Positions 10,422-48,902 of a stretch of DNA of 64,000 nucleotides are shown here, in pieces. Below the pieces are notes generated by a model, which saw only the letters and a list, made by a program, of their open reading frames with translations, did not search any database and had not been told where the DNA came from. Positions within the stretch are counted from its first letter, which is position 1. Each line of letters starts with the position of its first letter. The translations under genes were made by a program, and so were the position numbers. The DNA lies in the NCBI GenBank assembly GCA_050010515.1, contig JBEKKX010000006.1, positions 1 to 64,000 of the forward strand, given 5' to 3'. This DNA is from Candidatus Bathyarchaeia archaeon (GTDB lineage Archaea > Thermoproteota > Bathyarchaeia > Bathyarchaeales > Bathycorpusculaceae).

Positions 10422-11423
10422 CTATTTTCTGCGGTCTATGATCTCCATTGCTTCAGGTCCAGTGCCAATTAAAACGACAGGCACTCCTGTTTTGTTTTCA
10501 ACTTCCTCTACGAAGTCTTTTGCTTCCTTTGGCAGGTCACTGTATTGTTTGGCACCTCTGCAGTTTGGGAAAAGGCTATCCAGTTTTGTCATTGCCGCTT
10601 GTGTGGCACCGTTTATCTTAGCGGTTTTCTTTGCTAACTCAAAATCAAATGGTGCTGAGCGTCTGTCTCTGCCTGTTCCAGCTGCCACTTCAAACCAGCC
10701 TCTTTTCTGCGCTTCCTCTTTTGTTATTTCTCCAGGTAACGGTCCGGCGCCAACTCTTGTTATGAATGATTTATAAACTATTAGAACATCGTCAACTCTT
10801 GTTGGTCCGACTCCTGCTTCTGAGGCGATGGCTGATGCGCCTGTATCTCTTCCAGTCACGTATGGGTAACCGCCGCTCAAGAACAGTGATAACATGAAGC
10901 CTTGTGTGCCTTCAAGAAGCACTTTTTTGCCTTCATCTAAGCCATCGTTGACTTCTTTCACTTGGTCAGTAAGGTACGGCTTCAACTCAGGGATGTCTTT
11001 GGCTAGTTTCGCTGTCCGTCGGACGCGTTCTTCAATGGCTGGTCCAACGCCCCAACCTGTGGTTCCAATACCTTTGTTGACGGCGCTTGCCTTGTCTTGG
11101 GCGCTGTGCTTTTCCTCAATTATTGAGGCGTTCTGGTCTACTCCTATTCTGCCCTGCACTTTTGTGAGTTCTACTTCTTCAAAAAATTTCTGAACATGGA
11201 TGTTTGCACCTGCCGCAATGAGCAGGCGTGTTTGAGGGTTTAAGAAGGCTGCGGGAACCATGTGTAAAGCGTATTTTTTGCCTTCGTACCAGACGGTGTG
11301 TGCTGCGTTTACTGAGCCGGTTCTGACGCAGAAATCAAGTTTGTCTTTGAGGGCTAAATAAGAGATTATTTTTCCTTTGCCTTCGTCTCCCCAGAAGGCA
11401 CCGACAATTACCGTGCAAGGCAT
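10422..11423 (-). CDS. purA: adenylosuccinate synthetase (short archaeal type)
   Basis: GAFWGDEGKGK, NAAHTV, EGTQG, TRVGAGP motifs. Confidence 0.96.
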   Translation of the reverse strand: MPCTVIVGAFWGDEGKGKIISYLALKDKLDFCVRTGSVNAAHTVWYEGKKYALHMVPAAFLNPQTRLLIAAGANIHVQKFFEEVELTKVQGRIGVDQNASIIEEKHSAQDKASAVNKGIGTTGWGVGPAIEERVRRTAKLAKDIPELKPYLTDQVKEVNDGLDEGKKVLLEGTQGFMLSLFLSGGYPYVTGRDTGASAIASEAGVGPTRVDDVLIVYKSFITRVGAGPLPGEITKEEAQKRGWFEVAAGTGRDRRSAPFDFELAKKTAKINGATQAAMTKLDSLFPNCRGAKQYSDLPKEAKDFVEEVENKTGVPVVLIGTGPEAMEIIDRRK

Positions 11424-11475
11424 TTCAATTTCACCGTTGACAAGTCATCTCAAGAATTATTTAAACATAGGGCAT

Positions 11476-11670
11476 CTAACACGGCTTATTTTCACTTTTT
11501 CGTTTCTTTTCTTCGTTTATCAGTTGAGCTAAAGTGTATGTAACATAGGCTGAGAAACTATGAATGCCTTTTTTAATTACGTATTCCTCTTTGATCTTAA
11601 GCCACTCGTTAAAAAAGTAATCATAAACTTCAGCCTTTACAGTGATGCTTTTAAAGCCTTTTTTCGGCGT
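11476..11670 (-). CDS. small RHH-like protein (64 aa), ACG at the expected start
   Basis: Hand translation: (T/M)PKKGFKSITVKAEVYDYFFNEWLKIKEEYVIKKGIHSFSAYVTYTLAQLINEEKKRKSENKPC; GGGGGA SD-like upstream; no canonical start codon in frame. Confidence 0.55.
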   Translation of the reverse strand, partial: TPKKGFKSITVKAEVYDYFFNEWLKIKEEYVIKKGIHSFSAYVTYTLAQLINEEKKRKSENKPC

Positions 11671-11758
11671 TTTGTTTCCCCCTTAAGTTAGTTAGCGAAA
11701 GTACATTTATATAAGGTTTCTCAATACTGCTGAATTCACCGTTAATTATATATTCAAT

Positions 11759-11774
11759 CGTACTGTAAAGTACG
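11759..11774. promoter_or_regulatory. palindromic operator candidate CGTACT-GTAA-AGTACG
   Basis: Perfect 6-bp arms between a TATA-like tract and the TTG start at 11794. Confidence 0.4.
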
Positions 11775-11793
11775 GAAGTGGGGATTGGGAGTT

Positions 11794-11940
11794 TTGCCAC
11801 GAAAAGGCTACAAATGCATAACAGTCACAGAAAAAGTTCATGCAGATATCAGAAAAAAAGCAGCGGAAACCAACCTTACTATGAGAGGATACGTTGAATA
11901 CTTGATTGCTAAGGATAAAGTTGCAAAAGAAGGAAAATAA
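11794..11940 (+). CDS. small RHH-like protein (48 aa)
   Basis: Hand translation MPRKGYKCITVTEKVHADIRKKAAETNLTMRGYVEYLIAKDKVAKEGK; strand-helix-helix pattern; GGGAG upstream. Confidence 0.65.
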   Translation: MPRKGYKCITVTEKVHADIRKKAAETNLTMRGYVEYLIAKDKVAKEGK

Positions 11941-12137
11941 TTGTGCCCATTAAGGTCCTTCAATCTAACGACCGCGTTGCTGAAGTACAATTTATATGTG
12001 ATTGCTGTGGCAAACTAGTAAGAACCAGTGTAATAACAAGGCAGGAAGCTGACGCTAAAAAAGACACAAAAATAACTTGCTGCCAATGCAAACATACCCA
12101 AAACAGCAAGAATTAACCCCTGATTTTTAAAAGAAGC

Positions 12138-12518
12138 TTAAGAACGCCTGTTTGCCGCTTCGTTATCGATTCTCTCTAAAAGTCTAATCACTATTTTGCC
12201 CTTTAGTTTTTTTTCTTTTTCTGTAATGGTGTTTCGTGAATCGCAGATATCGTCTAAAATTATTCCTTTTTCTTCATCCAGTATAACAGGGTATACTCGA
12301 CAGCCTGAAGGCCTATCAACGTAAACGTTGCATTGGCATTTTTTGGGGTTGTAGAAAACGCAGTAGCCTTCTCGGTTTTTGAGTTGTGCATAGCCTTGCC
12401 TGTCATATTTTACGAAGTAGTTTTTGCTGAAGCCTTTCTTTTCTAACCGTGCGATGTCTTTTTCGGATAGAAGCATTTCAGTTTCTGTACAACAGATACC
12501 GCAGTTTGAGCAACGCAT
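12138..12518 (-). CDS. YkgJ family cysteine-cluster protein
   Basis: CxxCGxCC...CVFY...CNVY..RP.GC.VYP. Confidence 0.85.
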   Translation of the reverse strand: MRCSNCGICCTETEMLLSEKDIARLEKKGFSKNYFVKYDRQGYAQLKNREGYCVFYNPKKCQCNVYVDRPSGCRVYPVILDEEKGIILDDICDSRNTITEKEKKLKGKIVIRLLERIDNEAANRRS

Positions 12519-12573
12519 AAGCTTGAAGTGTTTTGGCTTGTATTTTTGTTTTTATGCTTCTTTTAGTAACATT

Positions 12574-12810
12574 TTAGGCGGCTCTTTGCAGTAAATTTGA
12601 ATTTAACAGTTCAGCCCAAGCGACGTTTCTTAATGGTATACGGGTGGTTCTGCGGTTTCCGTATGGAGTGTACTCGATTAGACTGTTTTTCCCTGAGCCC
12701 TTATGGATTCCGATTAATTGCACATTTATTATCACGGCACCATCTTTTAAGTGCAGGTTAACGTTTTTTCCAATGTAAGATTTGGCGCTGTTAACGCTGA
12801 AGTTCTCCAT
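12574..12810 (-). CDS. small hypothetical protein, possible Sm-like fold
   Basis: IGKNVNLHLKDG..I pattern resembles the Sm1 motif. Confidence 0.65.
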   Translation of the reverse strand: MENFSVNSAKSYIGKNVNLHLKDGAVIINVQLIGIHKGSGKNSLIEYTPYGNRRTTRIPLRNVAWAELLNSNLLQRAA

Positions 12811-12817
12811 TGCCTTT

Positions 12818-12955
12818 TCACCATTCTTGTTCTTGGTCAGCTATTTTGATCCAGCATTGTTGGCAGATGGGCAATTTTTCGCCTTTTATCTCAATGTATA
12901 GTTTGATGTTTTCGTTTTTACAGTCGTCTTTCCAAGGGTTTTTACAATGCTCCAT
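12818..12955 (-). CDS. 45-aa Cys4 microprotein
   Basis: Hand translation MEHCKNPWKDDCKNENIKLYIEIKGEKLPICQQCWIKIADQEQEW; GAGGT SD; stop lies 7 nt before the next gene. Confidence 0.7.
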   Translation of the reverse strand: MEHCKNPWKDDCKNENIKLYIEIKGEKLPICQQCWIKIADQEQEW

Positions 12956-13188
12956 GTATCTTACCTCTGAAATACCGCTTTAGCATTTAGCGCTTTTAAG
13001 GTGGTTGCAGAAACTACTGTTTGAAGCAGGGGAGGGGTGAGTGAAAGTAAAACTTTTGGCGCTTTCAAGGCTTAAAGGGCTGCTTTAAGAAAAAAAGGTT
13101 TATGCTTTGGACAATGATATTTTGGCTTGCGCCGCTATTTTTTTGGAATCGTGTTGTATACTATCTTGTATTGGGCGGTTCTATTGAG

Positions 13189-13731
13189 TTAAAGGTTAAT
13201 TATTTGCGGCGTTATGGTTTCCTTTGTTATTTTTAGCAATCCAACAGATGGTTTATGCATGAAAGATGCTGGGTCAGTGGGGCTTCCAGGGTTAATAAAG
13301 AGATTTTTTTCTTCCCATTTTATTTTGGAAGCATGCGTATGCCCATAAACAAAAACGTTGAAACCATTCTCTTTAGCTATTTTCACCATCTTACCTGAAC
13401 CTTGAAGAACGTTCGGATTATGCATTACGCCTATTTTCCAATCGAAAATTTTAAGTGAATTAAGCTCAGGTAAAGCAGCGCTGACTTCTTGATCATCCAT
13501 GCTGCCATGAACCGCTAAAACTGGTGCAATCTGTTCTAATTCGTCAATTACTGATAATTCCACTAAGTCGCCAGCGTGTATAATGAAATCTGCATCCTTT
13601 AAGACCTCGAAAACTTTTTTGGGAATACACATGGCTCTTTTAGGGATATGAGTATCAGAGATTAACCCGATGATTTTAGCGGCTTCGAAACTTGCCGTCT
13701 CTCGATTAGTTATTGTTTGCATGCTGGTCAT
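13189..13731 (-). CDS. YfcE/MJ0936-family metallophosphoesterase
   Basis: ISDTH, HAGD, GHTH, NPGS motifs. Confidence 0.9.
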   Translation of the reverse strand: MTSMQTITNRETASFEAAKIIGLISDTHIPKRAMCIPKKVFEVLKDADFIIHAGDLVELSVIDELEQIAPVLAVHGSMDDQEVSAALPELNSLKIFDWKIGVMHNPNVLQGSGKMVKIAKENGFNVFVYGHTHASKIKWEEKNLFINPGSPTDPASFMHKPSVGLLKITKETITPQIINL

Positions 13732-13920
13732 TTTGCGGTTGACACCAAAGTGGCGCTATCTTAGTTGTTAGAATGGGTAAGTATAAAAATTTTACATTTC
13801 AAGAACTTTTGAGCATTTTAGAGTTACAGGGCACCCTTCTTTTTCTCCACGGCAAGGTATCTCCAAAAAAATAAAAGGTAAATTGGGCGGTGAGCAAATA
13901 CTAAGAAAGCTTGCTTAATG

Positions 13921-33943: not shown

Positions 33944-35050
33944 TTAAAAGTGGAATTTGTGGCTTTTTTGCACTTCAGTGTCGAATTCTTTTGCTAATTC
34001 TTCAAGAAGCGTTCGTTGCTGGAACGTAAGTTTTTCTGGAACTGACATGCCTATGCGTATTAGTATGTCGCCTTTGCCATAAGCCCTGAAATGTGGCATT
34101 CCTTTTCCCTTCAACGTTATGACTTCGCCTACCTGCGTTCCTGGATGAATCTTGATGGTTGTTGGTCCTTCAAGGGTGGGAACGGCTATTTCAGCGCCTA
34201 ATGCTGCTTGCGGATAAGTGATTATGGCTACGTGCCATAGGTCGTCTCCTTCCCTTATAAATTGCGGGTGCGGCTTAACGTGAACGACGACATAGAGGTC
34301 GCCTGGTTCGCCATCGTCAGACGCCATTTCTCCTTCTCCTCTGAGCCTAAGCTGATTACCTTCATCTATGCCCATTGGAATTTTAACGGTGATTTTACGG
34401 CGTATCCTAACCCGCCCTGTACCATGACAATTACTACATGGCTTTTCAATCAGTTGGCCTTTTCCTTTACATGTTGGGCAAGCAGTCACTTGCACGTACA
34501 TCCCGAAGCCGCTTTTGCGCATATTTTGCACTTGACCCGAACCGCCGCACCTTGGGCAAATTTTAACGGAAGTGCCTGGGGCAGCGCCTGAACCCTCGCA
34601 TACATTGCATTTTTCAGTTCGTGGGATTTCAATTTCTTTTTCGGCTCCGTTAGCAGCCTCTTCCAAGGTTATTTCAAGGTCATAAGCTAAGTCTTGGCCT
34701 ATGTTTCTTCTTTCGCCTCCGAATCCCCCGCCGAAGAAAGTTCGGAAAATGTCCCCGAAACCCATGTCTCTAAAAACAGAGTCAAAGTTGGCACCTCTGA
34801 AAATGTCTTCTGAACTGTATCTTTGGTCAAAACCTGAATGGCCAAGGGTATCGTATTGTTGTCGTTTTTGGTCGTCGGAGAGAACAGCATAAGCTTCAGA
34901 GATTTCTTTGAATCTTTCTTCTGCTCCAGGAGACTTGTTTCGGTCTGGATGGAATTGCATTGCCAGTTTTCTGTAAGCGTCTTTGATTTCGTCCTTTGAT
35001 GCGTTGCGTTGTACGCCTAGAACTTCGTAGTAGTCTCGTTTTTCAGCCAT
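33944..35050 (-). CDS. dnaJ: chaperone DnaJ
   Basis: J domain HPD, G/F region, four CxxCxGxG repeats. Confidence 0.97.
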
Positions 35051-35082
35051 TAGATTTTACCGCTAAATCAGCATCTATTATT

Positions 35083-37008
35083 TTATTTGACTTTGTAATC
35101 TTCTGAATCAACCACTCTCTCTTGACCTGATTCTTCGGGACCTGGACCTTCAGGACCGCCGCTTGGGGGTGGTTGGGGTCCTGTTCCTGCTTCTGGTCCT
35201 TGGCCTGGTTGTTGCTGTCCCTTCTGTTTTGCGTATTCTGCTGCTGCTTGCTGGTAAACCTTCGTTCCGACATCCTGCAGTACCTTCTGGAGTGCGTCGG
35301 ATTTTGTTTTCACCAGTACCATGTCATTGCTTGCTAGAGCGTTTTTGAGTTCTGTTACTGCCGCGTCGATTTTTCCTATTTCTTCCTGTGTGATTTTGCC
35401 TGCAAGGTCTGTCTTTGTTCGTTCCGCCGTGTAGACTAGGCTGTCAGCGTTGTTGCGCAGTTCAGCTTCTTCCCTTTTCTTTTTGTCTTGCTCTGCGTAT
35501 TGGTCGGCGTCTTTGATTAAACGTTCCTTTTCTTCTTTAGATAGCTTGGTGGATGCGGTTATGCGTATTTTTGATTCTTTTCCTGTGCCTAAGTCTTTGG
35601 CAGTTACGTTCATTATACCGTTGGCGTCGATGTCGAATGTCACTTCTATCTGTGGGACGCCTCGTGGTGCAGGCGGCAAATCTACGAGGTTAAACATGCC
35701 AAGTGAAACGTTGTCCCCTGCCATTGCACGTTCGCCTTGGAGCACGTGGATGGTGACTGCTGTCTGGAAGTCCGCTGCTGTCGTGAAGATTTGGCTTCTC
35801 TTAGTTGGAATGGTCGTGTTCTTTTCCATTACTTTAGTGTGTACGCCGCCCATGGTTTCTACACCGAGCGACAATGGTGTAACGTCAAGTAAAAGTAGGT
35901 CTGTGACTTCGCCTGTTATGACTGCTGCTTGGATGGCTGCTCCTATTGCAACGCATTCCATGGGGTCAAGTCCACGTTCGGGCGCTTTGCCTAAGATTTG
36001 CTCAACAAACCTTTGAACAAGTGGCATTCTGGTCATTCCGCCGATTAGAATGATTTTGTCGATTCCTTGCGGCGTCAGTTTTGCGTCTTCAAGAGCTTTC
36101 AGAAGGGTAGGTTGTGTTCGCTGCACGATTGGTTGCGCTAAAGATTCCAGTTTAGTTCGCGTTAATGTTAGGTGTAGGTGTTTTGGTCCTGAAGCGTCTG
36201 CTGTTAAAAATGGCAGGTCGATGTCGGTGCTCATCAGCGCTGAAAGCTCAATTTTGGCTTTTTCCGCGGCTTCTTTAAGCCTAGGCATTGCCATTCTGTC
36301 GCCTGAGACATCTATGCCTGTTTGACGTTTGAACTCGCCTAAAATGTAGTCCATGACTGCTTTGTCAACGTCTGTTCCGCCGAGTTGGGTGTCACCGCTT
36401 GTGCTGAGCACTTGGAAGACTCCTTTGCCAAAATCCATTACTGTGACGTCGTGTGTTCCGCCGCCGAAGCTGAACACGAGAATTTTCATTTCTTGCTGTA
36501 CCTTGTCTATGCCGTATGCGAGGCATGCAGCTGTGGGTTCGTTGACTATTCGCATGACTTGGAAGCCTGCAATTTCTCCTGCATCTTTGGTTGCTTGGCG
36601 TTGGTTGTCATTAAAGTGTGCTGGAACAGTAATGACTGCTTTGCGCATAGTGCCGCCAAGGTAGGTTTCTGCGTCCTTCTTTATTTTTTGCAGTATGAAT
36701 GCTGAGATTTGCTGGGGACTGTACTCTTTTCCGTAAACGTTGACTTTGTAGTCAGTGCCCATTTTGCGTTTTATTTCAAAAATTGTTCCTTCTGGGTTGG
36801 TGGCTGCTTGGCGTTTCGCTGGTTCACCTACCAAGAGTTGTCCGTCTTTTGTGAAGGCAACAACTGATGGGAACATTTTTCCCGCCATTGTAGGGCCTTC
36901 TGCGCTTGGGATAACTGTTGCGTGTCCGCCTTCATATATGGCGGCTGCTGAATTGGTTGTTCCCAAATCTATTCCTAATACTTTTTCACTTGTTTTTTGA
37001 TTACTCAT
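35083..37008 (-). CDS. dnaK: chaperone DnaK
   Basis: [43 protein letters not shown]. Confidence 0.97.
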
Positions 37009-37554
37009 TTACTTTTTTTCCTCCATTTGGTTACTTTGATTGTTTTTTGATGGTTTGACTGCTACTTTGACGATGGTGGGTCGAATTACTTTGCCCTTCA
37101 TCATGTAGCCTTTTCTTATTTCCTCAATCACGGTGCCGTCTTCAACATCGTCTTGCTCTACAGCGGCAATAGCGTTATGACGTGTGGGGTCAAAAGCTTT
37201 GCCCTCTGGGCTTTCTATTGGAGTGACACCTTCTTGCTCAAGAACCTTTCTGAGCTTTTTCAGCGTCATTTCCACGCCTTCTAGCAAGGATTCGGGCGAT
37301 GTTGAGATTTCGCCGTTTTTAACCGCTAACTCCAGCTCATCCACAACATCCAGTAGTTGGATGACTAAGCGTTCGGTGCAGTAATTCTTGGTCTGCTCCG
37401 CTTCACGGTCAAACCGTTTCTTAAAGTTATCAAGGTCAGCCTGCAAATACTTAAGCCTAGTCAAATAATCTTCTGCACGTTTCCGCTCACAATCCAGAAG
37501 CTGCTCTAGCTGGTCAACAGACTTCTCTTCTTGCTCTTTTTGTGCATCAACCAT
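37009..37554 (-). CDS. grpE: nucleotide exchange factor GrpE
   Basis: ADLDNFKKR, FDPTRHNA, KGY...VIRP; abuts dnaK. Confidence 0.95.
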   Translation of the reverse strand: MVDAQKEQEEKSVDQLEQLLDCERKRAEDYLTRLKYLQADLDNFKKRFDREAEQTKNYCTERLVIQLLDVVDELELAVKNGEISTSPESLLEGVEMTLKKLRKVLEQEGVTPIESPEGKAFDPTRHNAIAAVEQDDVEDGTVIEEIRKGYMMKGKVIRPTIVKVAVKPSKNNQSNQMEEKK

Positions 37555-37691: not shown

Positions 37692-37972
37692 CTAGTGTTT
37701 CAACTGTTTCTTAACTGCTTCTTCGGCTGCTTTGACTGCTTCGGGTAGTTTGTCGCATTTTGTTCCTCCGCCTTGTGCAAAGTTGGGTCTTCCGCCGCCT
37801 CCGCCGCCAAAAATCGGTGCAACCTCTTTCACTATTTGGTTTGCGTTTACGCCTTTTTGCACCGCGTTTTCTCCAGCCATAACCATGAGTCTGCAGGTTT
37901 TTCCGTCAGAACCATAAAACAGCGTTACGGTTGCTGGGTTGCGCTTGATAATCTCCGCGGGGTTTTCACCAT
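37692..37972 (-). pseudogene. orphan 3' fragment of alaS (C-Ala/DHHA1 domain)
   Basis: MVKT/frameshift/EIIKRNPATVTLFYGSDGKTCRLMVMAGENAVQKG..GGGGGGRPNFAQGGG..AVKKQLKH aligns with the C-terminus of alaS at 42315-42610. Confidence 0.85.
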
Positions 37973-40900
37973 GGGCGCCTATTCGGCAAGTTTTCTTTTG
38001 ATTACCATATTTATCATAAATTTATCATTAGAATTTGCTTAACTAAAAACAAGAAATTTCTTTAATGATTATGTCGGATTTTCTTTATTCGCGATATTAA
38101 TTAGCGCAATCTTTGCTGCCATTCGAACACGGCTTTCATAATTGTTATGAGAATCAGCCCTGTATTTAGAGAATTTTGGTAAAGGTGATTTTATTATATT
38201 TGTTAGAAGCAATATCGCTGCGCTATCTCCGATTATGTCCAAAGACTCGATGATCTCGAGCCTATAATCCAAAGCCTCGAACCATTCCTCTTCCTTCGGA
38301 GGAATAAAATCTTCATAAAGCCTTATCAACCTGTCTGTGGCCGATCTACTTGCAATTTTGCCCAACGTAATTACCGTCTCTTTCCAAAGCTCTGTCGGAT
38401 TTCCGAAAGTTGGTTGGTTCATCCAATTTAAGCCCTTGGCAACTTGCCTTTTATCTTCAAAAATCTGCATTAAGCTCGTGATTGATTTAGCATTTCCTAT
38501 TTCCCCGAGTGCCCGCACAATCGATATTTTTGCATTATAATCCGATTCTGTTGAAAGCAGGTTAAGCAAAGGTGTCACTCCAACTCCACTCTTAAGTTTA
38601 CCTATGGAATCTATTGCGGATATTCTGACTTGCGGGTCGGAATCAGTCAAGAAAGAGATTAACGGTTTCATAACTTGATTTCCTCCAATTTCACCTAGCG
38701 CGTCAGCCACAGCCTGCCGTATTTTCGGTTGGCCGCTTTTCATAGGTACTATAAGCGTTTCAACACTATTTTGATCACCGATTTTTCCAAGGGCGATTAT
38801 CGAATGAATCCGAGTTTTTTCATCGCTTGTTTTTACAAAAGAAGTTAGTAAATCGACCGCGCTCTTCGTTCTCATGCGGCCAAGTCCATCAATAGCCAGC
38901 AATCTAAGGTCGGGATTCTTCTCTTGTTCTCTTGATATTTGTAGAAGAATATTTTCTGCTTCTCCCCCACCAATCATTTCAATAGCAAGCATAATCTCTT
39001 TTTCATATCGTCCTTCATTGCTTTTCATGAATTCGACCAAAGGTTCAATTCCCGAATCTATTCTTAACTCGCCAATAGCTTCGATTATACAATTCATGTG
39101 AGTAGATGTGCCCTCTCTCAAAACTTGCACTAGTAAAGGAAGTGCTGCTTCAACTCCTAAGGCTTGGAAGGCATCAAATATGTGTCGTCTGTTTTCTGTT
39201 TTCTTATTACAAAGCAGGTCGACCAGCGCGGGTATCGCTTTGTTACTACCAATCATTCCCAACGCAATTATAGCATTTTTTGCAACAATTGTATCGGTCT
39301 CGTTCAATAACCCAATAAGTGGTGTTAATATGTCATTTCCGCCAATTCTACCCAGTGCTTCAATTGCTCGACTTCTAACTTGTTTATCGTCATCAGATAG
39401 CAACCCAAGAAGCGGTTTGATGGCTGCCCTATTCTGGGTTATGCCTAGTGCCTCTGAGGCGCTAATCCGAATCCACTTATTTGGACTTTTTAGTAGTTCA
39501 ATAAGCGAAATAGTTACCTTGTCATTCCAATTCTTCTGGAGATTTTCACTTGTAAAAAGTATGTTTCCTATAGATTCTGTGGCTGATGTTACAACCATTT
39601 CGTCGGTATCTTGAAGGGCGGTTAGCAGGAATTCAAGTGATTCTTCAGTACATTTTTTTCCTAATATCTCAATTACAGATTTTTTAGTATAAGCATCAGC
39701 GTTATCTGCCATTTTCAAGAGTTTTTTTGTTATGTTTTCGTTTTTTATCTTTGACAACGCTCTTACAATTGCATAACGCAAAGACAAGTCTTGTTTGTCC
39801 TTAAGTGCATTGATCAAGCCTTCGACTGCTTCATTACTTCCTACTTCTGATAAGGAATTAATTGCTTCGTTCCATACATCAGAATCTTCGTCATCTAGCG
39901 CTTTTATCAAGTACTCAGTAACTCTATTATCACCAAGTTCTCCTAGCGTCTTTATCGCAAAGACCTTAAAGTTGCCTTTAATCGCTAAATTGCCGATTAT
40001 ACCTATACTGGTTTCAGGCCTTTTGAGTTTACGTGATAAATTTATTACAAACGTTTCCCAGGTAGGTTCTTGGGACTTAAGGATCTCGTTTATCATGGAT
40101 ATATGAATATCCTGTTTTTTTCCTTCCATCATCATTACAAGATACTGAATGGTTCCCCTCATAATTCTAAATTTTTTCGCTTCATCGATAAAATTGTTCA
40201 AATCATTGATTATTTCTGCTTGTTCTTTTTTTTGCCATTGGTAATCAGATCCGTAAATTATCCATCTTGCCATGACATATTCGAAAAATGCCTCGTAAGC
40301 AAAGCCTACTACTCTATCCCCTTCCCAATTAAGATAGGTAATAAGATTTTCGCTAAGTATCTTACTCAACACTGTTTCTAAATCAGCTGTTGTATCACCA
40401 AGAAGAGCTATTATTTCTGTTTTTGGCAGTTCGCTTTTTTGTTTCTTCTTAAGTTCGGCCACGAATTTGTACATTTGTTCTGTGGCTTTACTCTCTTTAC
40501 CTGTATGTTCGAGCTTCCTTAACCAATATTGATCGAATATTTCAATTCTTCGAACGTCACTAGGAAGATTTTGACCTTCAAATCCTTCGGCAAGAAATCT
40601 CAACATTAGCGGATGCAAACAGATAGCCCTGAGTTCCTTTACAAGAGTTCCCTTGAGTTGATATAACCGCTTATATAATGTCCATGCTTCTTTGAACTCT
40701 TTTGCATTAAACTCATTGAAGCGCAGGTCGTTTTTCATGAAAACGCGGCCTTTTTTTGAGTAAAGGCGATCCAGGAATCCTTCATTATCCTTCAGGAAGA
40801 ATTCCCAATCCATGTCTCGACAGCTAATATAGAATTTGATTCTGTTACCGATATTATTTTGAACTATATCTGCCAAGTCTCTTTTGATCGCCTGTGGGTT

Positions 40901-42314
40901 AGGGGATTCGTTAATTGCGTCTAAAAATACTATCAAATCAAAGTTTTTTTCGTTTAGGGCTTCATTCAAATTTGGCATTAACTGATCAAGATTAGGGTAA
41001 TCCTGCGCGTTAAGAGCATCAATCAAATGTTGTTCAAGTGACCCGTTGATATACATGCTGTTTAGGAATAATACTGGTCGACTATCCATGAGCTTTTCAG
41101 ATAAATGACAGAGAAGGTTAGTCTTTCCAATTCCGGCTTCGCCAACAACAACACATGCGTTTTTTTCTTGCTGATCTAGAAATTCGTCGAACTCTTTTTC
41201 TATCTCTGCGCGTTTGACGTACAGATTTGGAATGTACTTTTTGCTTCGATCAATTGCACTTCCTTTAAGGTCTTGCATTTGATTTATAACCTGTTCTTTG
41301 CATGTTTGCAATATCTTTAGGAATGTTATTTTAGGGTGAATAACAGGAGTTTGTTCGAGTAATGCTCTTGTGTACGCCGAAGCGACAAGTGCAGCGTAGG
41401 AATGCCAATCATCATTTTTTCTATCATCAGAATAATCGCAAATGCCGCGCACTATTAAGTAGCCTACTTGTTGATCCCACGTGGCTTCAGCAGTACCTGA
41501 CCCTTCCATTTCAAAAGCTCTTACCCCAAATTGATCTCTTAACTGATCTCGTTTCCGAGCATTTTTAAGAAGCGTGTTCCCAGATGCGACTGAGCCAATA
41601 AATACTCGAGGCTGCCCTGCAATTCTTTTAGGGTCTTCAGGATGATTAATGAAGATTTCAGGATTATTTGAACTAACTAGGATATCGGTTTTTTCTGAAG
41701 GACGCTCAATCTTTAGCTTTTTCATACCTTGCTTAATGAATTTAAGCCATGGTCGGTCTCCCTCAATTTCCAATGCTTCCATACGTCGAACTGAAGCAAG
41801 TAAATGCGAACTTGGGGGTCTTGGCAAGGGTCTAACAATGATATTTTCTGTTTCTTCCTTAACAAAATCATATTGTATTACGCCATTCTGACCAGATACT
41901 ACTATGTCTCCTAAACGAACATGCTCAGTGGTTTTTTCGGGGTTCGGTGCTCCTCCAGCGATACCTACCATTATAATTGAGTTAATGTTAGGGAAGTCTT
42001 CTAATAACATTGTAGTCTTACTAGCCGCAATGTTATTTCCCATTCCGGCAAGAAATAAAACTACAATATGCGTTCCTCCGTTTAATGCGTGTATTTGTCC
42101 TATACAATAAGTTCGTGGTGACCGAGCGCCTGTTGAATAAGATTTTGTTTTGTTCATCATTGCTTTTACAGCGGCATACTCCTCAGGCAATGCAGTAAGT
42201 ATACCAATTGAAGCCTGCTTGCACTCCGGTGCGCTATCCACATTGCTTGACATGCAACATAGATAAAGATAGGATACCTAAAAAACATGCGCTAATTTTA
42301 GATTGCCAGTTTTC
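37973..42314. mobile_element. inserted single-gene defence islet at the alaS 3' end
   Basis: Bounded by two homologous alaS 3' ends; visibly AT-richer than alaS and dnaK; no integrase present, so mobility is inferred. Confidence 0.45.
38069..42253 (-). CDS. PNP_UDP (nucleosidase)-STAND/NACHT NTPase-HEAT repeat protein, NLR/Avs-like
   Basis: PNP motifs (TALPEE, MVGIAGG, ASGN, FEMEG, RGICDYSD); Walker A GEAGIGKT, Walker B IVFLDAINE, ISCR, HPLML; many HEAT-like repeats (VR..A.EALG.IG). Confidence 0.88.
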   Translation of the reverse strand: MSSNVDSAPECKQASIGILTALPEEYAAVKAMMNKTKSYSTGARSPRTYCIGQIHALNGGTHIVVLFLAGMGNNIAASKTTMLLEDFPNINSIIMVGIAGGAPNPEKTTEHVRLGDIVVSGQNGVIQYDFVKEETENIIVRPLPRPPSSHLLASVRRMEALEIEGDRPWLKFIKQGMKKLKIERPSEKTDILVSSNNPEIFINHPEDPKRIAGQPRVFIGSVASGNTLLKNARKRDQLRDQFGVRAFEMEGSGTAEATWDQQVGYLIVRGICDYSDDRKNDDWHSYAALVASAYTRALLEQTPVIHPKITFLKILQTCKEQVINQMQDLKGSAIDRSKKYIPNLYVKRAEIEKEFDEFLDQQEKNACVVVGEAGIGKTNLLCHLSEKLMDSRPVLFLNSMYINGSLEQHLIDALNAQDYPNLDQLMPNLNEALNEKNFDLIVFLDAINESPNPQAIKRDLADIVQNNIGNRIKFYISCRDMDWEFFLKDNEGFLDRLYSKKGRVFMKNDLRFNEFNAKEFKEAWTLYKRLYQLKGTLVKELRAICLHPLMLRFLAEGFEGQNLPSDVRRIEIFDQYWLRKLEHTGKESKATEQMYKFVAELKKKQKSELPKTEIIALLGDTTADLETVLSKILSENLITYLNWEGDRVVGFAYEAFFEYVMARWIIYGSDYQWQKKEQAEIINDLNNFIDEAKKFRIMRGTIQYLVMMMEGKKQDIHISMINEILKSQEPTWETFVINLSRKLKRPETSIGIIGNLAIKGNFKVFAIKTLGELGDNRVTEYLIKALDDEDSDVWNEAINSLSEVGSNEAVEGLINALKDKQDLSLRYAIVRALSKIKNENITKKLLKMADNADAYTKKSVIEILGKKCTEESLEFLLTALQDTDEMVVTSATESIGNILFTSENLQKNWNDKVTISLIELLKSPNKWIRISASEALGITQNRAAIKPLLGLLSDDDKQVRSRAIEALGRIGGNDILTPLIGLLNETDTIVAKNAIIALGMIGSNKAIPALVDLLCNKKTENRRHIFDAFQALGVEAALPLLVQVLREGTSTHMNCIIEAIGELRIDSGIEPLVEFMKSNEGRYEKEIMLAIEMIGGGEAENILLQISREQEKNPDLRLLAIDGLGRMRTKSAVDLLTSFVKTSDEKTRIHSIIALGKIGDQNSVETLIVPMKSGQPKIRQAVADALGEIGGNQVMKPLISFLTDSDPQVRISAIDSIGKLKSGVGVTPLLNLLSTESDYNAKISIVRALGEIGNAKSITSLMQIFEDKRQVAKGLNWMNQPTFGNPTELWKETVITLGKIASRSATDRLIRLYEDFIPPKEEEWFEALDYRLEIIESLDIIGDSAAILLLTNIIKSPLPKFSKYRADSHNNYESRVRMAAKIALINIANKENPT

Positions 42315-45158
42315 TTAGCAAATGCCCAGTTTGTTCAATTGTTTCTTTACTGCGTCTTCTGCTGCATTTACTGCCTCTTTTAGTTTCTCTGGTTTTGTTC
42401 CGCCGCCCTGCGCAAAGTTGGGTCTTCCACCTCCGCCGCCTCCGATAATAGGCGCAACTTGACGGATTACTTCAGCTGCATTGAAGCCTTGGTCCACTGC
42501 TAATGATCCAGACATAATAACTAGACCGGACGTTTTGTCAGTTTTTCCTCCGAAGACAGTTATTGTGCCTGGATCTTTTTTGATTAATTCACTGGCAAGC
42601 TGAATCATTGGTGCTACGTCAACGCCAGAAAACTCTCGTCTTATTACTTTACATTCCCCGAGAATCGTTATTCCTTCTGTCGTTTCCGCAATAAAATCTG
42701 GTCTCACTTGTTTGCTTTCTTTTTCAATAACAAAGCTTTCCTTTTGGGCTAGTTCCTTGATTAGCTTGCGTTTCTCAACATTTGCCTCCTTGAGTTCTTT
42801 GACGATTTTCTCAGCCGTCTTATCCAACTTGTTCGCAGGAGCCGTCAAAACTTCTGAAACCTTCCAGAGCAGGCTTTCCTGTTTCTGTACTGCCTTTAGC
42901 GCTTCCAGCCCAACTGCGTAGCCTAAGCGTTCCACGCCGTCCTGTACGCGTTCGGTGTAGACGATTTTTACAAAGCCGACCTCGCCAGTGCTTCCCAGAT
43001 GTGTTCCAGCGCACGCTTCAACGTCCCAATCGCCAGTTTTCACCACTCGGATATCTTTGCCAGGTACTGCACCGCCTTGGTAGAGTCTGAAGCCGTAACG
43101 TGCTTCCGCCTCGTTGCGCGGTAGCCAAGTTGTCTCAACCTTCATGTTAGCGCCTATCGCCTGATTAGCCAATATCTCAATTTTATGAACTTCTTCAGTG
43201 CTCAGTCTTCGGTAATGTGAAATGTCAAGGCGTGAAGTTTCCAAGCCCTTCTGAGTGCCTGATTGCCAAACATGCTCGCCTAAAACCCGTCTTGCAGCAC
43301 CATTAATTAGGTGCGTAACCGTATGCGCCTTCATCAAAGCGTAACGTCTGTCCCAGTTGAGAACGCCGTGAACAGTGCTGCCTTCTTTGAACGTTGGCGA
43401 TGTGCTGAGTTTGTGCACTATGATTTTACCGATCTTTTGGGTGTCAACCACGTCAAACTTTGAAGCGCCAACTGTTAGCCATCCGTGGTCTGCTGGTTGC
43501 CCTCCGCCCTCAGGGTAAAAGCATGTTCGATCCAACACGACGTACTTGTCGTTGATTATTTTGAGGACTTTAGCGTCGAACTCACGCATATACGTGTCGG
43601 CATAGTACAGTTGTTCTGTTGCTGGCAGTTGCTCAGCCACTTTCTCGAGCGTTTTCTCGGCTTGGGTTTCTTCCTCTTCGACGGGTTTGGTTGCTTGCAT
43701 GTGTCGTTTAGCGATTAACGCGTAAAAGTTCTCCGGAACCTCCACTTGCACGCCTTCTTTTTCAGCTGCTTGCTTAACAATTTCTGGTGGAAGCCCATGC
43801 GAATCATACAGTTCTGTCAGCGTATCCATTGGTAGTTTGCCTGTGCCTTTTGCTTTCAGGTCGCTGGCTATTCGTTTAACCATGCCTTCTCCGCGTTTGA
43901 GCGTGTCTTCAAACTTTTCCTCCTCAACCTTGAGCATTTCAACGATTTCGTTTTGCATTTCTTTGATGTGTGGGAAATCTTTTGACCAATAATCGACCTG
44001 CATATCCACGATATCGTACAGTTTTGCTGGCTCCATGTTGAGGGTTCGCATTAAACGGTAAACCTTGCGGTACAGCAGCCGCGCTAAGTATCCTTCCTGA
44101 ATGTTCGATGGCACAACCCCTTCAGACAGCATGAAGCTTAAGGTTTTAGTGTGGTCAGTTACTGCCCAAGCATTCTCAATCGGAATCAACACTTTATCAA
44201 GCGTTTCCATGTCAATTCCAGATAACTCTGACACACGTTTTCTAGTGACAAGCCGATTCGCGTTTTTGTCAACGCTAACCAGACCAGAATACTTCGCTAC
44301 ACGAGATAGAAAATCGTTGTCAACATTGGTTATTCCCGCCATGCTGAGAACTTTATCAAGCAAATTCCCGTAAATCGCTTGGAACAAGCTTGGCACACCC
44401 TGACTGATCCAGGTAAAGCGGTCAATGCCATAGCCCGTGTCAACCGTGCGAATAGGCAACTCGATGAAGTCGTCGCCGACAACCTTGTACTGCATGAAAA
44501 CCAAAGTGCCAACCTCTAATCCCCGCACGATGCATTCCACGTCTGGACCAGCGTTGCCGCCGCCAACCCACACATCCTCCTTGTAGACGACCTCCTCAGA
44601 TTTTATGCCAAGCACTTCAGTGGCAAAGCGGTGGTGAAAACGCACTGTTTCATCCTTCCAGTACACTTCCTTGTCAGGATAGTTGAATGCGTGTGCTCCG
44701 CCCATCTCGAAAATGGTTAAGTGCCTGCCAAAAGTTGGTCCAGTATTCGAAATATCCGTCAGCCTAATGCATGGCTGAGAAATCACCAGCGGATTTGCAG
44801 GTGGCGGAGAAATCCCCTCGGTCACGTAGGGCTGGAAGTCAATTATACTTGCATGCGTTAAGTAAATGTCTTTTCGCCATCGGGCAACAACCGGATAAGG
44901 TTTAATGCGGGTATGCCCATTCTTCTCAAAAAACGAAAGAAACGCCTCCCTCATCTCGGAAAGGCTGAAACTTTTCTTTGTGGCTGGATTATTAATGAAA
45001 GTGTAGTATCCGCATTCGTCGGAGCTGGATTCGCCGCAAGTTTCCTGCTCAGGGTTCTGAGTCCAATAATACTCACCGCATTTTGGACAATGCTTCCTAA
45101 CGAAACCTTCCTGTTTAAAGAATGGAAGAGCATAATCTTCTGCCGTAAACTGCTTCAA
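42315..45158 (-). CDS. alaS: alanine--tRNA ligase (archaeal type)
   Basis: SQPCIR, VDTGYG, FYPEGGGQ, editing motifs HTVTH and ACAGTH, C-terminal GGGGGRPNFAQGGG. Confidence 0.97.
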   Translation of the reverse strand: MKQFTAEDYALPFFKQEGFVRKHCPKCGEYYWTQNPEQETCGESSSDECGYYTFINNPATKKSFSLSEMREAFLSFFEKNGHTRIKPYPVVARWRKDIYLTHASIIDFQPYVTEGISPPPANPLVISQPCIRLTDISNTGPTFGRHLTIFEMGGAHAFNYPDKEVYWKDETVRFHHRFATEVLGIKSEEVVYKEDVWVGGGNAGPDVECIVRGLEVGTLVFMQYKVVGDDFIELPIRTVDTGYGIDRFTWISQGVPSLFQAIYGNLLDKVLSMAGITNVDNDFLSRVAKYSGLVSVDKNANRLVTRKRVSELSGIDMETLDKVLIPIENAWAVTDHTKTLSFMLSEGVVPSNIQEGYLARLLYRKVYRLMRTLNMEPAKLYDIVDMQVDYWSKDFPHIKEMQNEIVEMLKVEEEKFEDTLKRGEGMVKRIASDLKAKGTGKLPMDTLTELYDSHGLPPEIVKQAAEKEGVQVEVPENFYALIAKRHMQATKPVEEEETQAEKTLEKVAEQLPATEQLYYADTYMREFDAKVLKIINDKYVVLDRTCFYPEGGGQPADHGWLTVGASKFDVVDTQKIGKIIVHKLSTSPTFKEGSTVHGVLNWDRRYALMKAHTVTHLINGAARRVLGEHVWQSGTQKGLETSRLDISHYRRLSTEEVHKIEILANQAIGANMKVETTWLPRNEAEARYGFRLYQGGAVPGKDIRVVKTGDWDVEACAGTHLGSTGEVGFVKIVYTERVQDGVERLGYAVGLEALKAVQKQESLLWKVSEVLTAPANKLDKTAEKIVKELKEANVEKRKLIKELAQKESFVIEKESKQVRPDFIAETTEGITILGECKVIRREFSGVDVAPMIQLASELIKKDPGTITVFGGKTDKTSGLVIMSGSLAVDQGFNAAEVIRQVAPIIGGGGGGRPNFAQGGGTKPEKLKEAVNAAEDAVKKQLNKLGIC

Positions 45159-45221: not shown

Positions 45222-46592
45222 TTAAATAATTTCGCCCAACTTTCTAACTAAAGAAGAATGCCAGCCCTCAATCATCGGCTTAGATTCATAAAGCTGTTTT
45301 TCCAACCCGTAACGCCTAAGCGGTTTGGTAAGATGTCTCTGTGACCTTGTCGAAGTCAAGTACAGACCAGCGTTAAGCGTTCTAGGTAGGGCTGATTCTT
45401 TCTTGGTTAAGTCGCCATATTCCGCTCCGCATTTTTCACAGCGGAACCCTTGGTTTTTGCCCATGGACTTCAAGCGTTTACCGCAGCATGGGCAGAGCGG
45501 ATTCTCAAATACCGTTTTCGGCGCAAGGTTTAGGATGTTAATTTTTTCAAGGTTAATTGTTAACGGCTTGCTTGACGTTGGCTTATGCACTGCACCATAA
45601 ACCTCAACGCTGTCGCCAACGATGAGTTCTCTTGCGATTTTGCGTAGGCTACCAGTTGGTTCGTAAGCGGCGCAATCTACTTCTGCCGAATCATCTTTAA
45701 TTGAAAAGATAACGTGGCGCAGGGGAACTATCCGCGGGTTCTGCGAAACAACGCCTTTAGCGATTACTGAACTGTAAGGTTCAATCTTGCTTAATGCTTC
45801 AACAGGCTTTAGGTGGGCATCGGTGCCTTGGTTTGAACGGAAAATAACCCAGCGCTCAACACTTTCAAGCGGCTTAATCATGCCGTAAGCTTTCTTTACT
45901 ATTTCTGGCGATTCGCCTCTTATGCCGAAGAGAATTGGGTCTGGACCTCGAGGTGTAATGATTACTCTGCGCTTCTCACAATCAACATTGTTAAAAGTGT
46001 AAGGCTGCAATTGCTGATCCATCTCAAAAATGGATACTTCATCAACTTTCCTCTTTGAACCCCAATTCTGCGGTGCCCTATAAGCAATTAACTCGTACGT
46101 GTGGTCGCAGTTGAGGGTTTCGCCAACGGCTGCCAACGCGCCAATGATGCCTCTGCAAGAGTTAAAGCCTAACGCTTCAGCCCCAAACTTCTTGATTAGC
46201 GCCATTGCTTCTTTGAGTTTTACAATGCTTGTTTCAGTTTTTTTCGCAAAAACCCCCAGTTCCTCGGGGATTTCTTGCCCCTTCAAAAAGACTATTCCAG
46301 GGTCTGTGCCTTTCTCTTTGATGGCTGAGTTTTCTTCCCATAAAGTTATAGCTGACTCTTTTATTTGCTCTTCAAATGTGGCGTCATACTTGAATCTTAG
46401 GCAGAGGGCACCGTTGCCTCTTGTTTTCCATGGCACGTTCGGATTAAGCCTGATCAAGCTTGGATAATCAGTAAATTCAACGTAAAACTTTTCAAGCTCT
46501 TCAATAAGTAATGCCGCAAGATAGGTTGTGCAACCCCCCTTCGTTGAGTCTGTATCGTCCAGCCCAATGTGCATTACCTGTTGCCTATTCAA
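45222..46592 (-). CDS. tiaS: tRNA(Ile2) agmatidine synthetase
   Basis: GLDDTDS..GGCTTY, RLNPNVPWKTRGNGA, GPDPILFGIRG, SNQGTD, zinc ribbon, HLTKP. Confidence 0.95.
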   Translation of the reverse strand: MNRQQVMHIGLDDTDSTKGGCTTYLAALLIEELEKFYVEFTDYPSLIRLNPNVPWKTRGNGALCLRFKYDATFEEQIKESAITLWEENSAIKEKGTDPGIVFLKGQEIPEELGVFAKKTETSIVKLKEAMALIKKFGAEALGFNSCRGIIGALAAVGETLNCDHTYELIAYRAPQNWGSKRKVDEVSIFEMDQQLQPYTFNNVDCEKRRVIITPRGPDPILFGIRGESPEIVKKAYGMIKPLESVERWVIFRSNQGTDAHLKPVEALSKIEPYSSVIAKGVVSQNPRIVPLRHVIFSIKDDSAEVDCAAYEPTGSLRKIARELIVGDSVEVYGAVHKPTSSKPLTINLEKINILNLAPKTVFENPLCPCCGKRLKSMGKNQGFRCEKCGAEYGDLTKKESALPRTLNAGLYLTSTRSQRHLTKPLRRYGLEKQLYESKPMIEGWHSSLVRKLGEII

Positions 46593-47873: not shown

Positions 47874-48902
47874 CTACTTCTTTCGTATAATTTTTATACC
47901 TGCCCATTGTAAGGCTCCATAAGACACGACGAGCCGGAACCATAGGCTCACAACCCTTGTCAGCAAAGTAACAGAAACACTTAGTGCTGCGGGGATTCCA
48001 AGTGCAGTAAATGAAATGCTCATGATTAATTCAGGAAACCCGAAAAATGTTACGCCTACAGTCTGGAGCGTCCCAGTTAAGGTGAATACAATGAGCACTT
48101 TATCAACGGGCACGGGATAACCTAATGCAATAAAAGTCAAAAATATAACAGATACTTCGAAAATAAAGCTTATAACGGCATATATGATGGGTTTAACTAG
48201 CGCTTTGGGATTCGCCTTCAATTGTTCCATGCCTAAATGAAATTTACCCAACACCCCATCTGCTTTAAGCATAAAATTTTGAGGGTTCCACCTTTTTCTG
48301 AAAAAAGACGCTATGCGTATGCCCCAGTTTAGCAAAGTTTTGGTTGCTTTTGGCTTAAGGCTCACGTAGTAAACGAGCAGAAGGGATAAAATTGAGAGAG
48401 CTAAGACAAAGGCAATTAAAAAAGTAACTATGAAAGGCAAGGGATAACTAATAAGTACTAATCCTAAACCAAGACCTAAAGCAACAACAGTCATTGTTAT
48501 GGTAAAAATTTTTTGTCCAACGACAGAAGCACCTATTTTTCCCGAAGCTTCATTTGAGTCCTTGGTTAAAAAATAAGTTTTAGATATTTCCCCAGACCAA
48601 CCCAACTGCGGAACTGTTGCGTCAAAAAATAATCCAACCCACGTTAACAACAAAGCCTTTCGTTTGCTGATTTTTACTGATAAATTATTTAGCAAGTTAC
48701 GCCAAACGAGCGAAGAGAAAAATGCAAACATAAAATATGATACAAAAGCACATGCATAATAAGCAAGATTTGTCCTTGAAAGTATGTCCAAAACTTGCGC
48801 AGGATTGATGAAGAAGTAAAAATAAAGAATGAAGGCTATTAACCCTAATATTAAAACTGTAAGAATCACGTTTAGACGCAGCGGTCTTTTAGTTGTGTTC
48901 AT
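47874..48902 (-). CDS. UPF0104/LPG synthase TM-domain (flippase-like) membrane protein
   Basis: About 8 TM helices; FFDATVP..GWSGE, ELIM, LLTR pattern. Confidence 0.8.
   Translation of the reverse strand: MNTTKRPLRLNVILTVLILGLIAFILYFYFFINPAQVLDILSRTNLAYYACAFVSYFMFAFFSSLVWRNLLNNLSVKISKRKALLLTWVGLFFDATVPQLGWSGEISKTYFLTKDSNEASGKIGASVVGQKIFTITMTVVALGLGLGLVLISYPLPFIVTFLIAFVLALSILSLLLVYYVSLKPKATKTLLNWGIRIASFFRKRWNPQNFMLKADGVLGKFHLGMEQLKANPKALVKPIIYAVISFIFEVSVIFLTFIALGYPVPVDKVLIVFTLTGTLQTVGVTFFGFPELIMSISFTALGIPAALSVSVTLLTRVVSLWFRLVVSYGALQWAGIKIIRKK

Follow-up and report, generated by a model that had tools for sequence, protein, structure and literature searches.

An NLR-like PNP-STAND-HEAT protein, probably an immune receptor, is encoded on an insertion into alaS in a Bathyarchaeia archaeon

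Results

Domain anatomy of the receptor gene

We analysed a stretch of 64,000 nucleotides from a Candidatus Bathyarchaeia archaeon (assembly GCA_050010515.1, contig JBEKKX010000006.1, positions 1 to 64,000; hereafter the window), in which alaS, a gene for a large three-part protein and grpE-dnaK-dnaJ follow one another, all on the minus strand. The large gene encodes a putative single-chain receptor, called the receptor below, that joins an N-terminal nucleosidase domain to a STAND NTPase module and a long solenoid of HEAT repeats. Its features, with the evidence for each, are as follows.

38069-42253, minus strand: receptor gene P0001 (PNP-STAND-HEAT, 1394 aa), intact; open reading frame (ORF) list and translation
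41339-42226, minus strand: PNP/MTAN-fold nucleosidase domain, residues ~10-305; Pfam PF01048, MTAN alignment, Foldseek and tree
40034-41236, minus strand: NACHT-like STAND NTPase module, residues ~340-740; PADLOC, profile matches, Foldseek and motif conservation
38072-39988, minus strand: C-terminal solenoid of ~20 HEAT (PBS-lyase type) repeats; HEAT_2, HEAT_PBS, alphaRep and periodicity
Motifs of the PNP domain, by residue: FEMEG 247-251; RGICDYSD 269-276
Motifs of the STAND module, by residue: Walker A GEAGIGKT 371-378; Walker B FLDAINE 443-449; ISCR 476-479 with the sensor arginine R479; HPLML 547-551

The ORF starts with ATG and runs for 1394 codons with zero internal stops; the database record of the same protein has 1390 aa and starts 4 residues downstream. 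The gene recurs unchanged on a second record (L123), which matches the window at 100% identity across 20,182 nt and may come from the same population. AlphaFold models of the receptor were built from homologue alignments, and the model of residues 1-760 was confident (pLDDT 86). The domain anatomy is as described and far above chance. An earlier note, made by a model from the sequence alone, had placed an ORF with these motifs at 38069-42253 and had divided its product into an N-terminal PNP_UDP domain of ~300 aa with intact-looking motifs, a STAND NTPase in the middle and ~600 aa of HEAT-like repeats. This description was borne out throughout: the coordinates agree, every quoted motif is present, Pfam detects the PNP domain around EMEG and RGICDYSD, the four STAND motifs lie in a module that Foldseek matches to the nucleotide-binding, helical and winged-helix domains (NBD-HD-WHD) of NACHT proteins, and ~20 repeats with a 31-aa period make up the C-terminal part.

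The N-terminal PNP domain groups with defence effectors

Pfam PNP_UDP_1 (PF01048) matched receptor residues 16-282 with an E-value of 9.4e-17 and 61.6 bits against a cut-off of 25.1, and Foldseek assigned this domain an MTAN-like PNP fold, that is, one like 5'-methylthioadenosine/S-adenosylhomocysteine (MTA/SAH) nucleosidase (TM 0.74-0.77 normalised to the target, 15-21% identity). Residues E25, E248-M249-E250 and D273 align with E12, E172-M173-E174 and D197 of MTAN and are the predicted catalytic residues; the set is invariant in 17/17 PNP-family sequences (family alignment A1). In the alignment, D273 also falls on the Asp of a Cap17-like CBASS protein, the mapping to Cap17 D472 and DtcC D353 being made via operon-context homologues and not via the assayed proteins themselves. 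The receptor carries the PNP family motifs VRLGD (112-116) and PRPPS (144-148). Two motifs that E. coli Mtn lacks are common to the receptor and the CBASS PNPs: K-N-D-x-W-x-x-Y-A-A, which follows the catalytic Asp, and the G-N of GMGNN.

Defence PNPs for comparison were drawn from a plasmid search with the receptor PNP domain, which returned 22 records. Three proteins were taken: a 'phosphorylase' from Klebsiella grimontii and a SAVED-domain protein from Nostoc, both PNPs that directly adjoin a CBASS oligonucleotide cyclase, and an Agrobacterium HNH-PNP. The archaeon's own genome holds a second, housekeeping PNP_UDP_1 gene on another contig, which scores 174 bits against 65 bits for the receptor domain. 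The blastp results for the receptor PNP were as follows.

Agrobacterium HNH-PNP: 92 bits, 29% identity
Nostoc CBASS SAVED-PNP: 82 bits, 30% identity
Klebsiella CBASS Cap17-like protein: 64 bits, 27.5% identity
E. coli Mtn: 33 + 25 bits (two fragments), 24% / 36% identity
E. coli DeoD: not significant
Own housekeeping PNP: no match

A tree of 47 rows, none dropped, was built from all 19 PF01048 matches in five genomes that hold family members, 21 family proteins picked for diversity of architecture from 150 + 120 listed matches, the three proteins from plasmids, Mtn and DeoD of E. coli, the archaeon's housekeeping PNP and the receptor PNP. A clade of 32 rows (93/91) united the receptor PNP with every family member, the two CBASS PNPs and the HNH-PNP, while the housekeeping rows, Mtn among them, formed a separate group (97/88, starred). 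The receptor PNP also lies outside what defines MtnN: the NCBIfam MTAN equivalog model scored 86.9 bits, below its own cut-off of 169, the domain is part of a 1394-aa protein whereas the stand-alone enzyme has ~230 aa, and it falls outside the Mtn group of the tree. These comparisons support the assignment of the receptor PNP domain to the defence type rather than the housekeeping type.

The STAND module resembles the NTPase core of NLRs

Foldseek searches with the model of residues 1-760 were dominated by PNP matches, and the STAND module was therefore modelled and searched alone (residues 306-760; pLDDT 87.6, pTM 0.84). The top matches were NLRC4, NLRP9, NLRP3 and NOD2 (TMq <=0.53), with Avs4 and a STAND-TPR protein lower. 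A sequence profile search matched ~400 positions to NLRP3 (E 1e-9; profile positions 355-730) and likewise to 9o4e, an Avs2 structure (E 5e-8). Residues G374, G376, K377, D445 and P548 are conserved. Pfam NPHP3_N passed its cut-off on this region (25.7 bits against 24.8), and the PADLOC Avs2 model matched with an E-value of 7.6e-17, over receptor residues 332-706 only (model positions 311-694 of 1504).

HEAT repeats, protein family and exchange of the effector head

From about residue 756 to the C-terminal end the receptor is covered by HEAT-type models (Pfam HEAT_2, E 1.2e-77 in 8 stretches; HEAT_PBS, E 1.4e-39). Identity within this region is 0.19 at a lag of 31 residues compared with about 0.09 at other lags, which gives the 31-residue period, and a profile search matched alphaRep structures. 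The solenoid is presumably the sensor.

A phmmer search with residues 1-760 against 1.84 billion representative proteins gave 10,939 matches at E<=1e-3, 984 of them at E<=1e-30. Among the 150 + 120 matches listed, the PNP domain (~300 residues) is 50-60% identical across the family and occupies an N-terminal, C-terminal or central position, fused to TIR, NB-ARC+TPR, NACHT+HEAT, WD40, pentapeptide repeats, patatin, protein kinase, Roc/LRR or receiver domains. The Methanosarcina members among them consist of PNP and HEAT repeats only, and one protein (P0166) joins a response-regulator receiver to a PNP domain 56% identical to that of the receptor, which is the domain pair of DtcC. A scan with two PNP peptide patterns, a biased sample, found the family to be rich in cyanobacteria, myxobacteria, Chloroflexota, Planctomycetota and Methanosarcina.

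The best full-length homologue among the matches listed is a metagenomic protein of 1425 aa (P0003), with 58% identity over 99% of the length. Next closest among them are five STAND-HEAT proteins (P0005-7, P0123 and P0205) whose STAND modules are 57-64% identical to that of the receptor and whose N-terminus is DUF4062, not PNP. According to the accessible part of one preprint (bioRxiv 10.64898/2026.09.04.749371), DUF4062, renamed NIR, was shown experimentally to be the NAD-depleting effector of an Avs2 protein. Because the nearest STAND-HEAT relatives bear this DUF4062/NIR NADase head, the effector head has been swapped on a common STAND-HEAT chassis. Conservation among homologues is highest in the helical and winged-helix part of the STAND module (62-72%; whole STAND, 57-72%) and lowest in the HEAT region (35-54% identity). 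A constant switch with exchangeable heads and diversifying repeats is the pattern published for Avs and bNACHT proteins, as far as the accessible parts of those reports go.

One metagenomic relative (P0047) combines DUF4062 and the same STAND module with a C-terminus of TFIIB cyclin repeats, not HEAT; these repeats look like an unusual candidate sensor of archaeal origin. A second protein (P0044) has the same domains, per precomputed Pfam annotation only.

The receptor gene lies on an insertion that replaced the end of alaS

A block of ~4.8 kb (~37959 to ~42735-42770) introduced the receptor gene along with a foreign C-Ala domain and pushed the native end of alaS aside. Its parts are listed here.

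37959-42770, no strand assigned: inserted block of ~4.8 kb (foreign alaS 3' end and receptor gene); low GC, identity drop and bridging contigs
42315-42740, minus strand: foreign alaS 3' end (C-Ala/DHHA1, residues ~809-947); DHHA1 detected, sequence diverging from the congeners' C-termini
42315-45158, minus strand: chimeric alaS as a whole; full length, DHHA1 kept
37692-37958, minus strand: relic of the native alaS 3' end, 86 codons and a stop; blastx, congener match and direct repeat

The G+C content is 0.38 in the insert compared with 0.45-0.47 in the flanks. Near 42770 the nucleotide identity to the nearest congener's alaS drops from ~85% to 33-54%, the similarity of the alanyl-tRNA synthetase (AlaRS) protein to that of congeners breaks near residue 809, and the left breakpoint lies between ~42734 and ~42770. 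At the other end, the relic matches the current AlaRS C-terminus of the window with 62% identity by blastx. The relic protein is near-identical to the AlaRS C-termini of three congeners (G003, G013 and G001), whereas the window's own AlaRS C-terminus is divergent. The two alaS ends were also recovered by a repeat search as a direct repeat (D1; 37699-37901 and 42334-42536, 71%), and the duplication was recovered again by a genome search. The relic is non-functional. Among 401 genomes searched, 285 of which gave a match, there was no close donor of the foreign alaS end, the best identity to any alaS of 400 class genomes being 55-56%.

In three of the four congeners examined, alaS is directly followed by grpE-dnaK across spacers of roughly 0.75, 1.2 and 2.65 kb, and in the fourth alaS and grpE lie about 16 kb apart. 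The alaS-grpE spot is variable in length, with a spacer of 0.14 kb after the relic in the window compared with 0.75, 1.2 and 2.65 kb elsewhere. The spacer of ~2.65 kb belongs to the closest congener (L010, G003:C1, 4760-7410) and holds ORFs of 114-249 aa with zero Pfam matches.

Partial duplication of the target's 3' end on either side of an insert, the arrangement expected of an integrative element, is present here in the foreign end (~42315-42740) and the relic (37692-37958). There was no integrase or recombinase among the minus-strand content of the insert (the alaS fragment and the receptor gene), and Pfam detected no recombinase domain in the receptor protein; six plus-strand ORFs of 80-168 aa, which were not scanned, lie at the block, five of them overlapping the receptor gene or the alaS fragment and one (37773-38042) overlapping the relic. 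Apart from the alaS duplication, the repeat search gave no convincing candidates for short att-like direct repeats where the insert ends. Integration targeted to a tRNA gene was ruled out, as the window contains zero tRNA genes. The insertion could have proceeded through an integrative element that has since decayed or through homology-facilitated illegitimate recombination anchored in alaS. A bolder version would make the receptor the cargo of a minimal, integrase-less module that targets the essential alaS gene, supplies a complete substitute C-Ala so that the synthetase remains whole and leaves the native 3' end behind as a relic, and at the same time the first archaeal ATP-nucleosidase NLR, with HEAT repeats recognising an archaea-specific virus protein; taken as a whole, we regard this as rather unlikely. 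If target-restoring alaS cassettes do recur, they would be an undescribed route for single defence genes between archaeal genomes.

Metagenomes contain alleles with and without the insert

The stretch is present in 20 listed peat or wetland metagenome runs under 19 study codes, seven of the runs being flagged as possible sources of the sequence. We compared the contigs of four runs with the window; three of these (X8, X10 and X13) are not flagged as sources, and their contigs span both insert junctions with zero differences. Because three non-source runs bridge both junctions without differences, mis-assembly was ruled out as the source of the alaS duplication.

The flanks, alaS on one side and grpE/dnaK on the other, have 10-50x the summed depth of the insert and show many differences. 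For X10 and X13, the summed depth is 60-470 over the flanks (36800-37480 and 42930-43600) and 4-9 over the insert. This depth, together with the differences, indicates related populations without the insert, and in the X10 and X13 samples insert-free related Bathyarchaeia appear to be far commoner than the insert-bearing genotype. Contigs also end loosely at 42768 (X10) and 37946 (X13), exactly where the alaS of relatives should leave the window sequence. Read by eye only, the reverse complement of the X13 loose end continues with the alaS codons that precede that point in congeners.

One further X13 contig (depth 2.6) joins 42444 to 37792, that is, both alaS 3' copies, separated by 21 other letters. 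Either a recombination event that removed the insert or a chimeric assembly over the repeat could account for it.

The receptor gene is accessory and sporadic

Of 40 related genomes searched with residues 1-760 of the receptor (24 from its own genus, 16 from different families within the order), a single one had a match. When the query was restricted to the STAND module, none of 150 other genomes of the family gave a match at E<=1e-10, and the archaeon's own genome holds no paralogue. Zero relatives came from a single-protein scan of genome contigs, only the identical window copy from a scan of metagenome contigs, and none among 53 candidate stretches from an IMG/VR scan with the family alignment. 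The inserted block had no blastn match among phage records. Thus, the receptor gene is accessory and sporadic, and it sits inside an insertion.

The reading of the sole congener copy (L013, that is G001:C7, 3261-7484) is split over four frames, and type I restriction-modification (R-M) genes (HsdM, and HsdR in two pieces) come directly after it at 7744-13832. We considered whether this copy is a pseudogene and set the idea aside: nearby genes are broken too (DUF72, upstream, in three pieces, the R-subunit in two), so that sequencing frameshifts are at least as likely.

Discussion

We propose, with a probability of roughly 0.7, that the gene encodes a single-chain NLR-like immune receptor of the Avs/bNACHT type that acts by abortive infection through a Cap17-type nucleosidase output and was acquired horizontally. 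Its function (ATP depletion and the sensing of a virus), its ligand, oligomerisation, substrate and protective effect are what we infer. In the resting state, the NACHT-like NTPase would keep the receptor as an inactive monomer. Once the C-terminal HEAT solenoid has bound a protein from a virus or another mobile element that invades the cell, nucleotide-dependent STAND oligomerisation would follow and gather the N-terminal PNP domains. The gathered domains would act as N-glycosidases on an adenine nucleotide, most likely converting ATP or dATP to adenine along with (deoxy)ribose-5'-triphosphate by analogy with Cap17, DtcC and fungal NLRN, and the loss of nucleotide would arrest the infected cell.

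Published work on related proteins is consistent with this scheme. In the accessible part of Rousset et al. 2023 (bioRxiv 10.1101/2023.01.24.525353), all four tested PNPs (Cap17, DtcC, fungal NLRN and sponge DDAN) cleave ATP or dATP, and mutation of the active-site Asp in Cap17 (D472A) and DtcC (D353A) abolishes defence. Bathyarchaeia are known to have tailed viruses that encode terminase, portal and an HK97-like major capsid protein (Bathyarchaeia virus and defence paper), so that the classical ligands of Avs proteins would be available in this host.

Several observations weigh against the proposal. For the PNP domain, identity to the CBASS PNP effectors is only 27-30%, the receptor's subfamily has an extra insertion of ~28 residues (about 180-207) that the CBASS PNPs lack, the MTAN equivalog (86.9 bits) outscores the PADLOC CBASS-effector model (71.3 bits), and the key branch of the tree (93/91) is under the star threshold, with four long-branch rows that drew a warning. 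For the NTPase, Pfam NACHT (PF05729) scores 22.4 bits, under its gathering score of 26.7, and the NCBIfam models for Avs2 (NF041813) and EruA reach 34.8 and 13.7 bits against cut-offs of 1000 each. In the Walker B motif, D445-A-I-N-E449, the small residue and the last Glu fit the NACHT signature D[GAS]hDE given in the accessible part of Kibby et al. (bioRxiv 10.1101/2022.07.19.500537), and the first acidic position is Asn. In the window, the neighbours of the receptor are the housekeeping genes alaS, grpE, dnaK, dnaJ and tiaS, and 10 neighbours searched against the PADLOC models gave no match save a weak one for DnaJ; a defence-island context is seen at the congener copy only. Finally, we found no published biochemical or genetic test of an archaeal or HEAT-bearing PNP-STAND protein in open-access papers and preprints.

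A receptor of the same layout might have another output, freeing the base of some nucleotide or nucleoside that is not ATP, or producing a signalling molecule instead of depleting ATP. The accessible part of Kaur et al. 2020 proposes that PNPase-superfamily domains of conflict systems make a second messenger by base release. The receptor subfamily is distinguished from the CBASS PNPs by its low identity, its insertion and conserved Arg/Pro motifs (PRPPS, 180-207), and its closest solved folds are MTA/SAH nucleosidases. ATP as the substrate is an extrapolation because of that insertion, which the CBASS PNPs lack. Set against this, all four members tested in the accessible part of Rousset et al. 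2023 cleaved ATP or dATP, and the inserted block, which holds the receptor gene and an alaS fragment only, has no downstream gene for a signal receptor. We consider such a different output unlikely.

Alternatively, the protein could sense conflict or stress without being aimed at viruses, as a switch for cell death or kin discrimination, as an anti-plasmid device, or as the guard of a host process such as the Hsp70 system (GrpE-DnaK-DnaJ). Fungal PNP-NLRs function in allorecognition (Rousset et al. 2023, accessible part), and Kaur et al. 2020, in the part accessible, tie such systems to social or multicellular prokaryotes; the pattern scan described above found the PNP family to be rich in cyanobacteria, myxobacteria, Chloroflexota, Planctomycetota and Methanosarcina. 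One bacterial NACHT protein is reported, in the accessible part of PMC13581612, to sense perturbation of DnaJ, and the receptor gene lies directly upstream of grpE-dnaK-dnaJ. This adjacency is, however, a product of the insertion into alaS, and the congener copy lies elsewhere, by type I R-M genes; for these reasons it is probably incidental. Moreover, the prokaryotic Avs, bNACHT and PNP systems tested in the accessible parts of the literature protect against phages. We hold a non-viral role to be quite improbable. Even less credible is a housekeeping or regulatory protein (e.g. a nucleosidase for MTA/SAH that is under STAND control and serves nucleoside salvage) or a passenger gene without remaining function: the best NCBIfam match of the PNP domain is the MTAN equivalog and the neighbours are housekeeping genes, but that match falls far under its cut-off, the genome has a separate housekeeping PNP, the gene is missing from 39/40 relatives searched, and the ORF is intact over 4.2 kb with conserved catalytic and P-loop motifs and is identical in contigs of several runs.

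Read as an NLR-like immune receptor, the protein can be compared with several known systems. Cap17-clade PNP domains occur at the N-termini of diverse prokaryotic Avs/NLR-like proteins (Rousset et al. 2023). The receptor is like these in its N-terminal defence-clade PNP, STAND module and C-terminal repeats, in its catalytic Asp and EME, and in its sporadic, mobile occurrence; it differs in its archaeal (Bathyarchaeia) host, in a HEAT (PBS-type) solenoid in place of TPR, and in the additional PNP segment of ~28 residues. With Cap17 and DtcC, for which operon-context homologues were compared, it shares a PNP clade that includes the effectors of two CBASS operons, and the motif K-N-D-x-W-x-x-Y-A-A as well as the G-N in GMGNN. 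In contrast to them, at 27-30% identity, it is predicted to be activated by STAND oligomerisation in the same chain, not through a SAVED domain (which binds cyclic oligonucleotides) or by phosphotransfer.

HEAT is a listed sensor type of bacterial NACHT proteins, which are divided into 25 NACHT clades, and PNPase is among the abbreviations in the architecture legend of Figure 2, in the accessible part of Kibby et al. The NBD-HD-WHD fold of the receptor, nearest to NLRC4, NLRP9, NLRP3 and NOD2, is shared with bNACHT proteins and animal NLRs, whereas its DAINE Walker B, compared with D[GAS]hDE, and its Pfam NACHT score under threshold set it apart from bNACHT. Among named defence models, Avs2 (AVAST type 2) fits the NTPase region best; outside the NTPase there is no match, the HEAT sensor stands in place of the TPR-like terminase sensor of Avs2, and the effector differs too. 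The DUF4062/NIR-Avs proteins (P0005-7, P0123 and P0205) have the STAND-HEAT chassis in common with the receptor, which has a PNP rather than an NADase head.

The earlier note had also named three outcomes that would count against its reading or its novelty, and none of them was seen. The PNP domain did not group with housekeeping nucleosidases, as it falls in the 32-row clade and scores 64-92 bits to the CBASS and HNH PNPs compared with 33 to Mtn; the gene is not core and syntenic in Bathyarchaeia, given its occurrence in a single one of the 40 genomes; and neither PADLOC nor NCBIfam gave a full-length match to a named Avs type, the Avs2 models covering the NTPase only. The note knew of no characterised archaeal example of this combination. 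We likewise found no characterised archaeal PNP-STAND protein in open-access papers and preprints, and the Bathyarchaeia virus and defence paper contains no mention of Avs in its main text; the layout itself is no novelty, as PNP-STAND fusions and HEAT sensors are already in print. Effectors of the PNPase superfamily are listed for NTP-dependent conflict systems in the accessible part of Kaur et al. 2020, archaeal cases such as Methanosarcina being few, and a 2026 survey, in the accessible part, counts 589 prokaryotic STAND clades and 684 sensor clusters (PMC13581612). Earlier reports cover the architecture class, the effector and the sensor type individually, and the receptor is no new category. 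What is new here is the low-GC insertion of ~4.8 kb that replaces the C-terminal domain of alaS and leaves the native 3' end as a relic.

If the proposal is correct, nucleotide-depleting NLR-type immunity, which is documented in bacteria and inferred for fungi and animals, would reach the Bathyarchaeia, a class of archaea that is abundant and uncultured and whose viruses were described only recently, and the receptor would offer a concrete starting point for a search for viral triggers. One STAND-HEAT chassis with two heads, PNP and DUF4062/NIR, is a clean natural case of effector swapping. The locus is also a well-resolved case of the entry of a defence gene, with a foreign C-Ala spliced onto alaS, a relic left behind and both alleles seen in peat and wetland metagenomes.

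The grpE-dnaK-dnaJ genes occupy 33944-37554, with the receptor gene immediately upstream of them. On the other side lie ordinary archaeal genes: a homologue of TiaS (tRNA-Ile2 agmatidine synthetase) at 45222-46592 and, further upstream at 47874-48902, a gene for a protein with a lysyl-phosphatidylglycerol-synthase transmembrane region.

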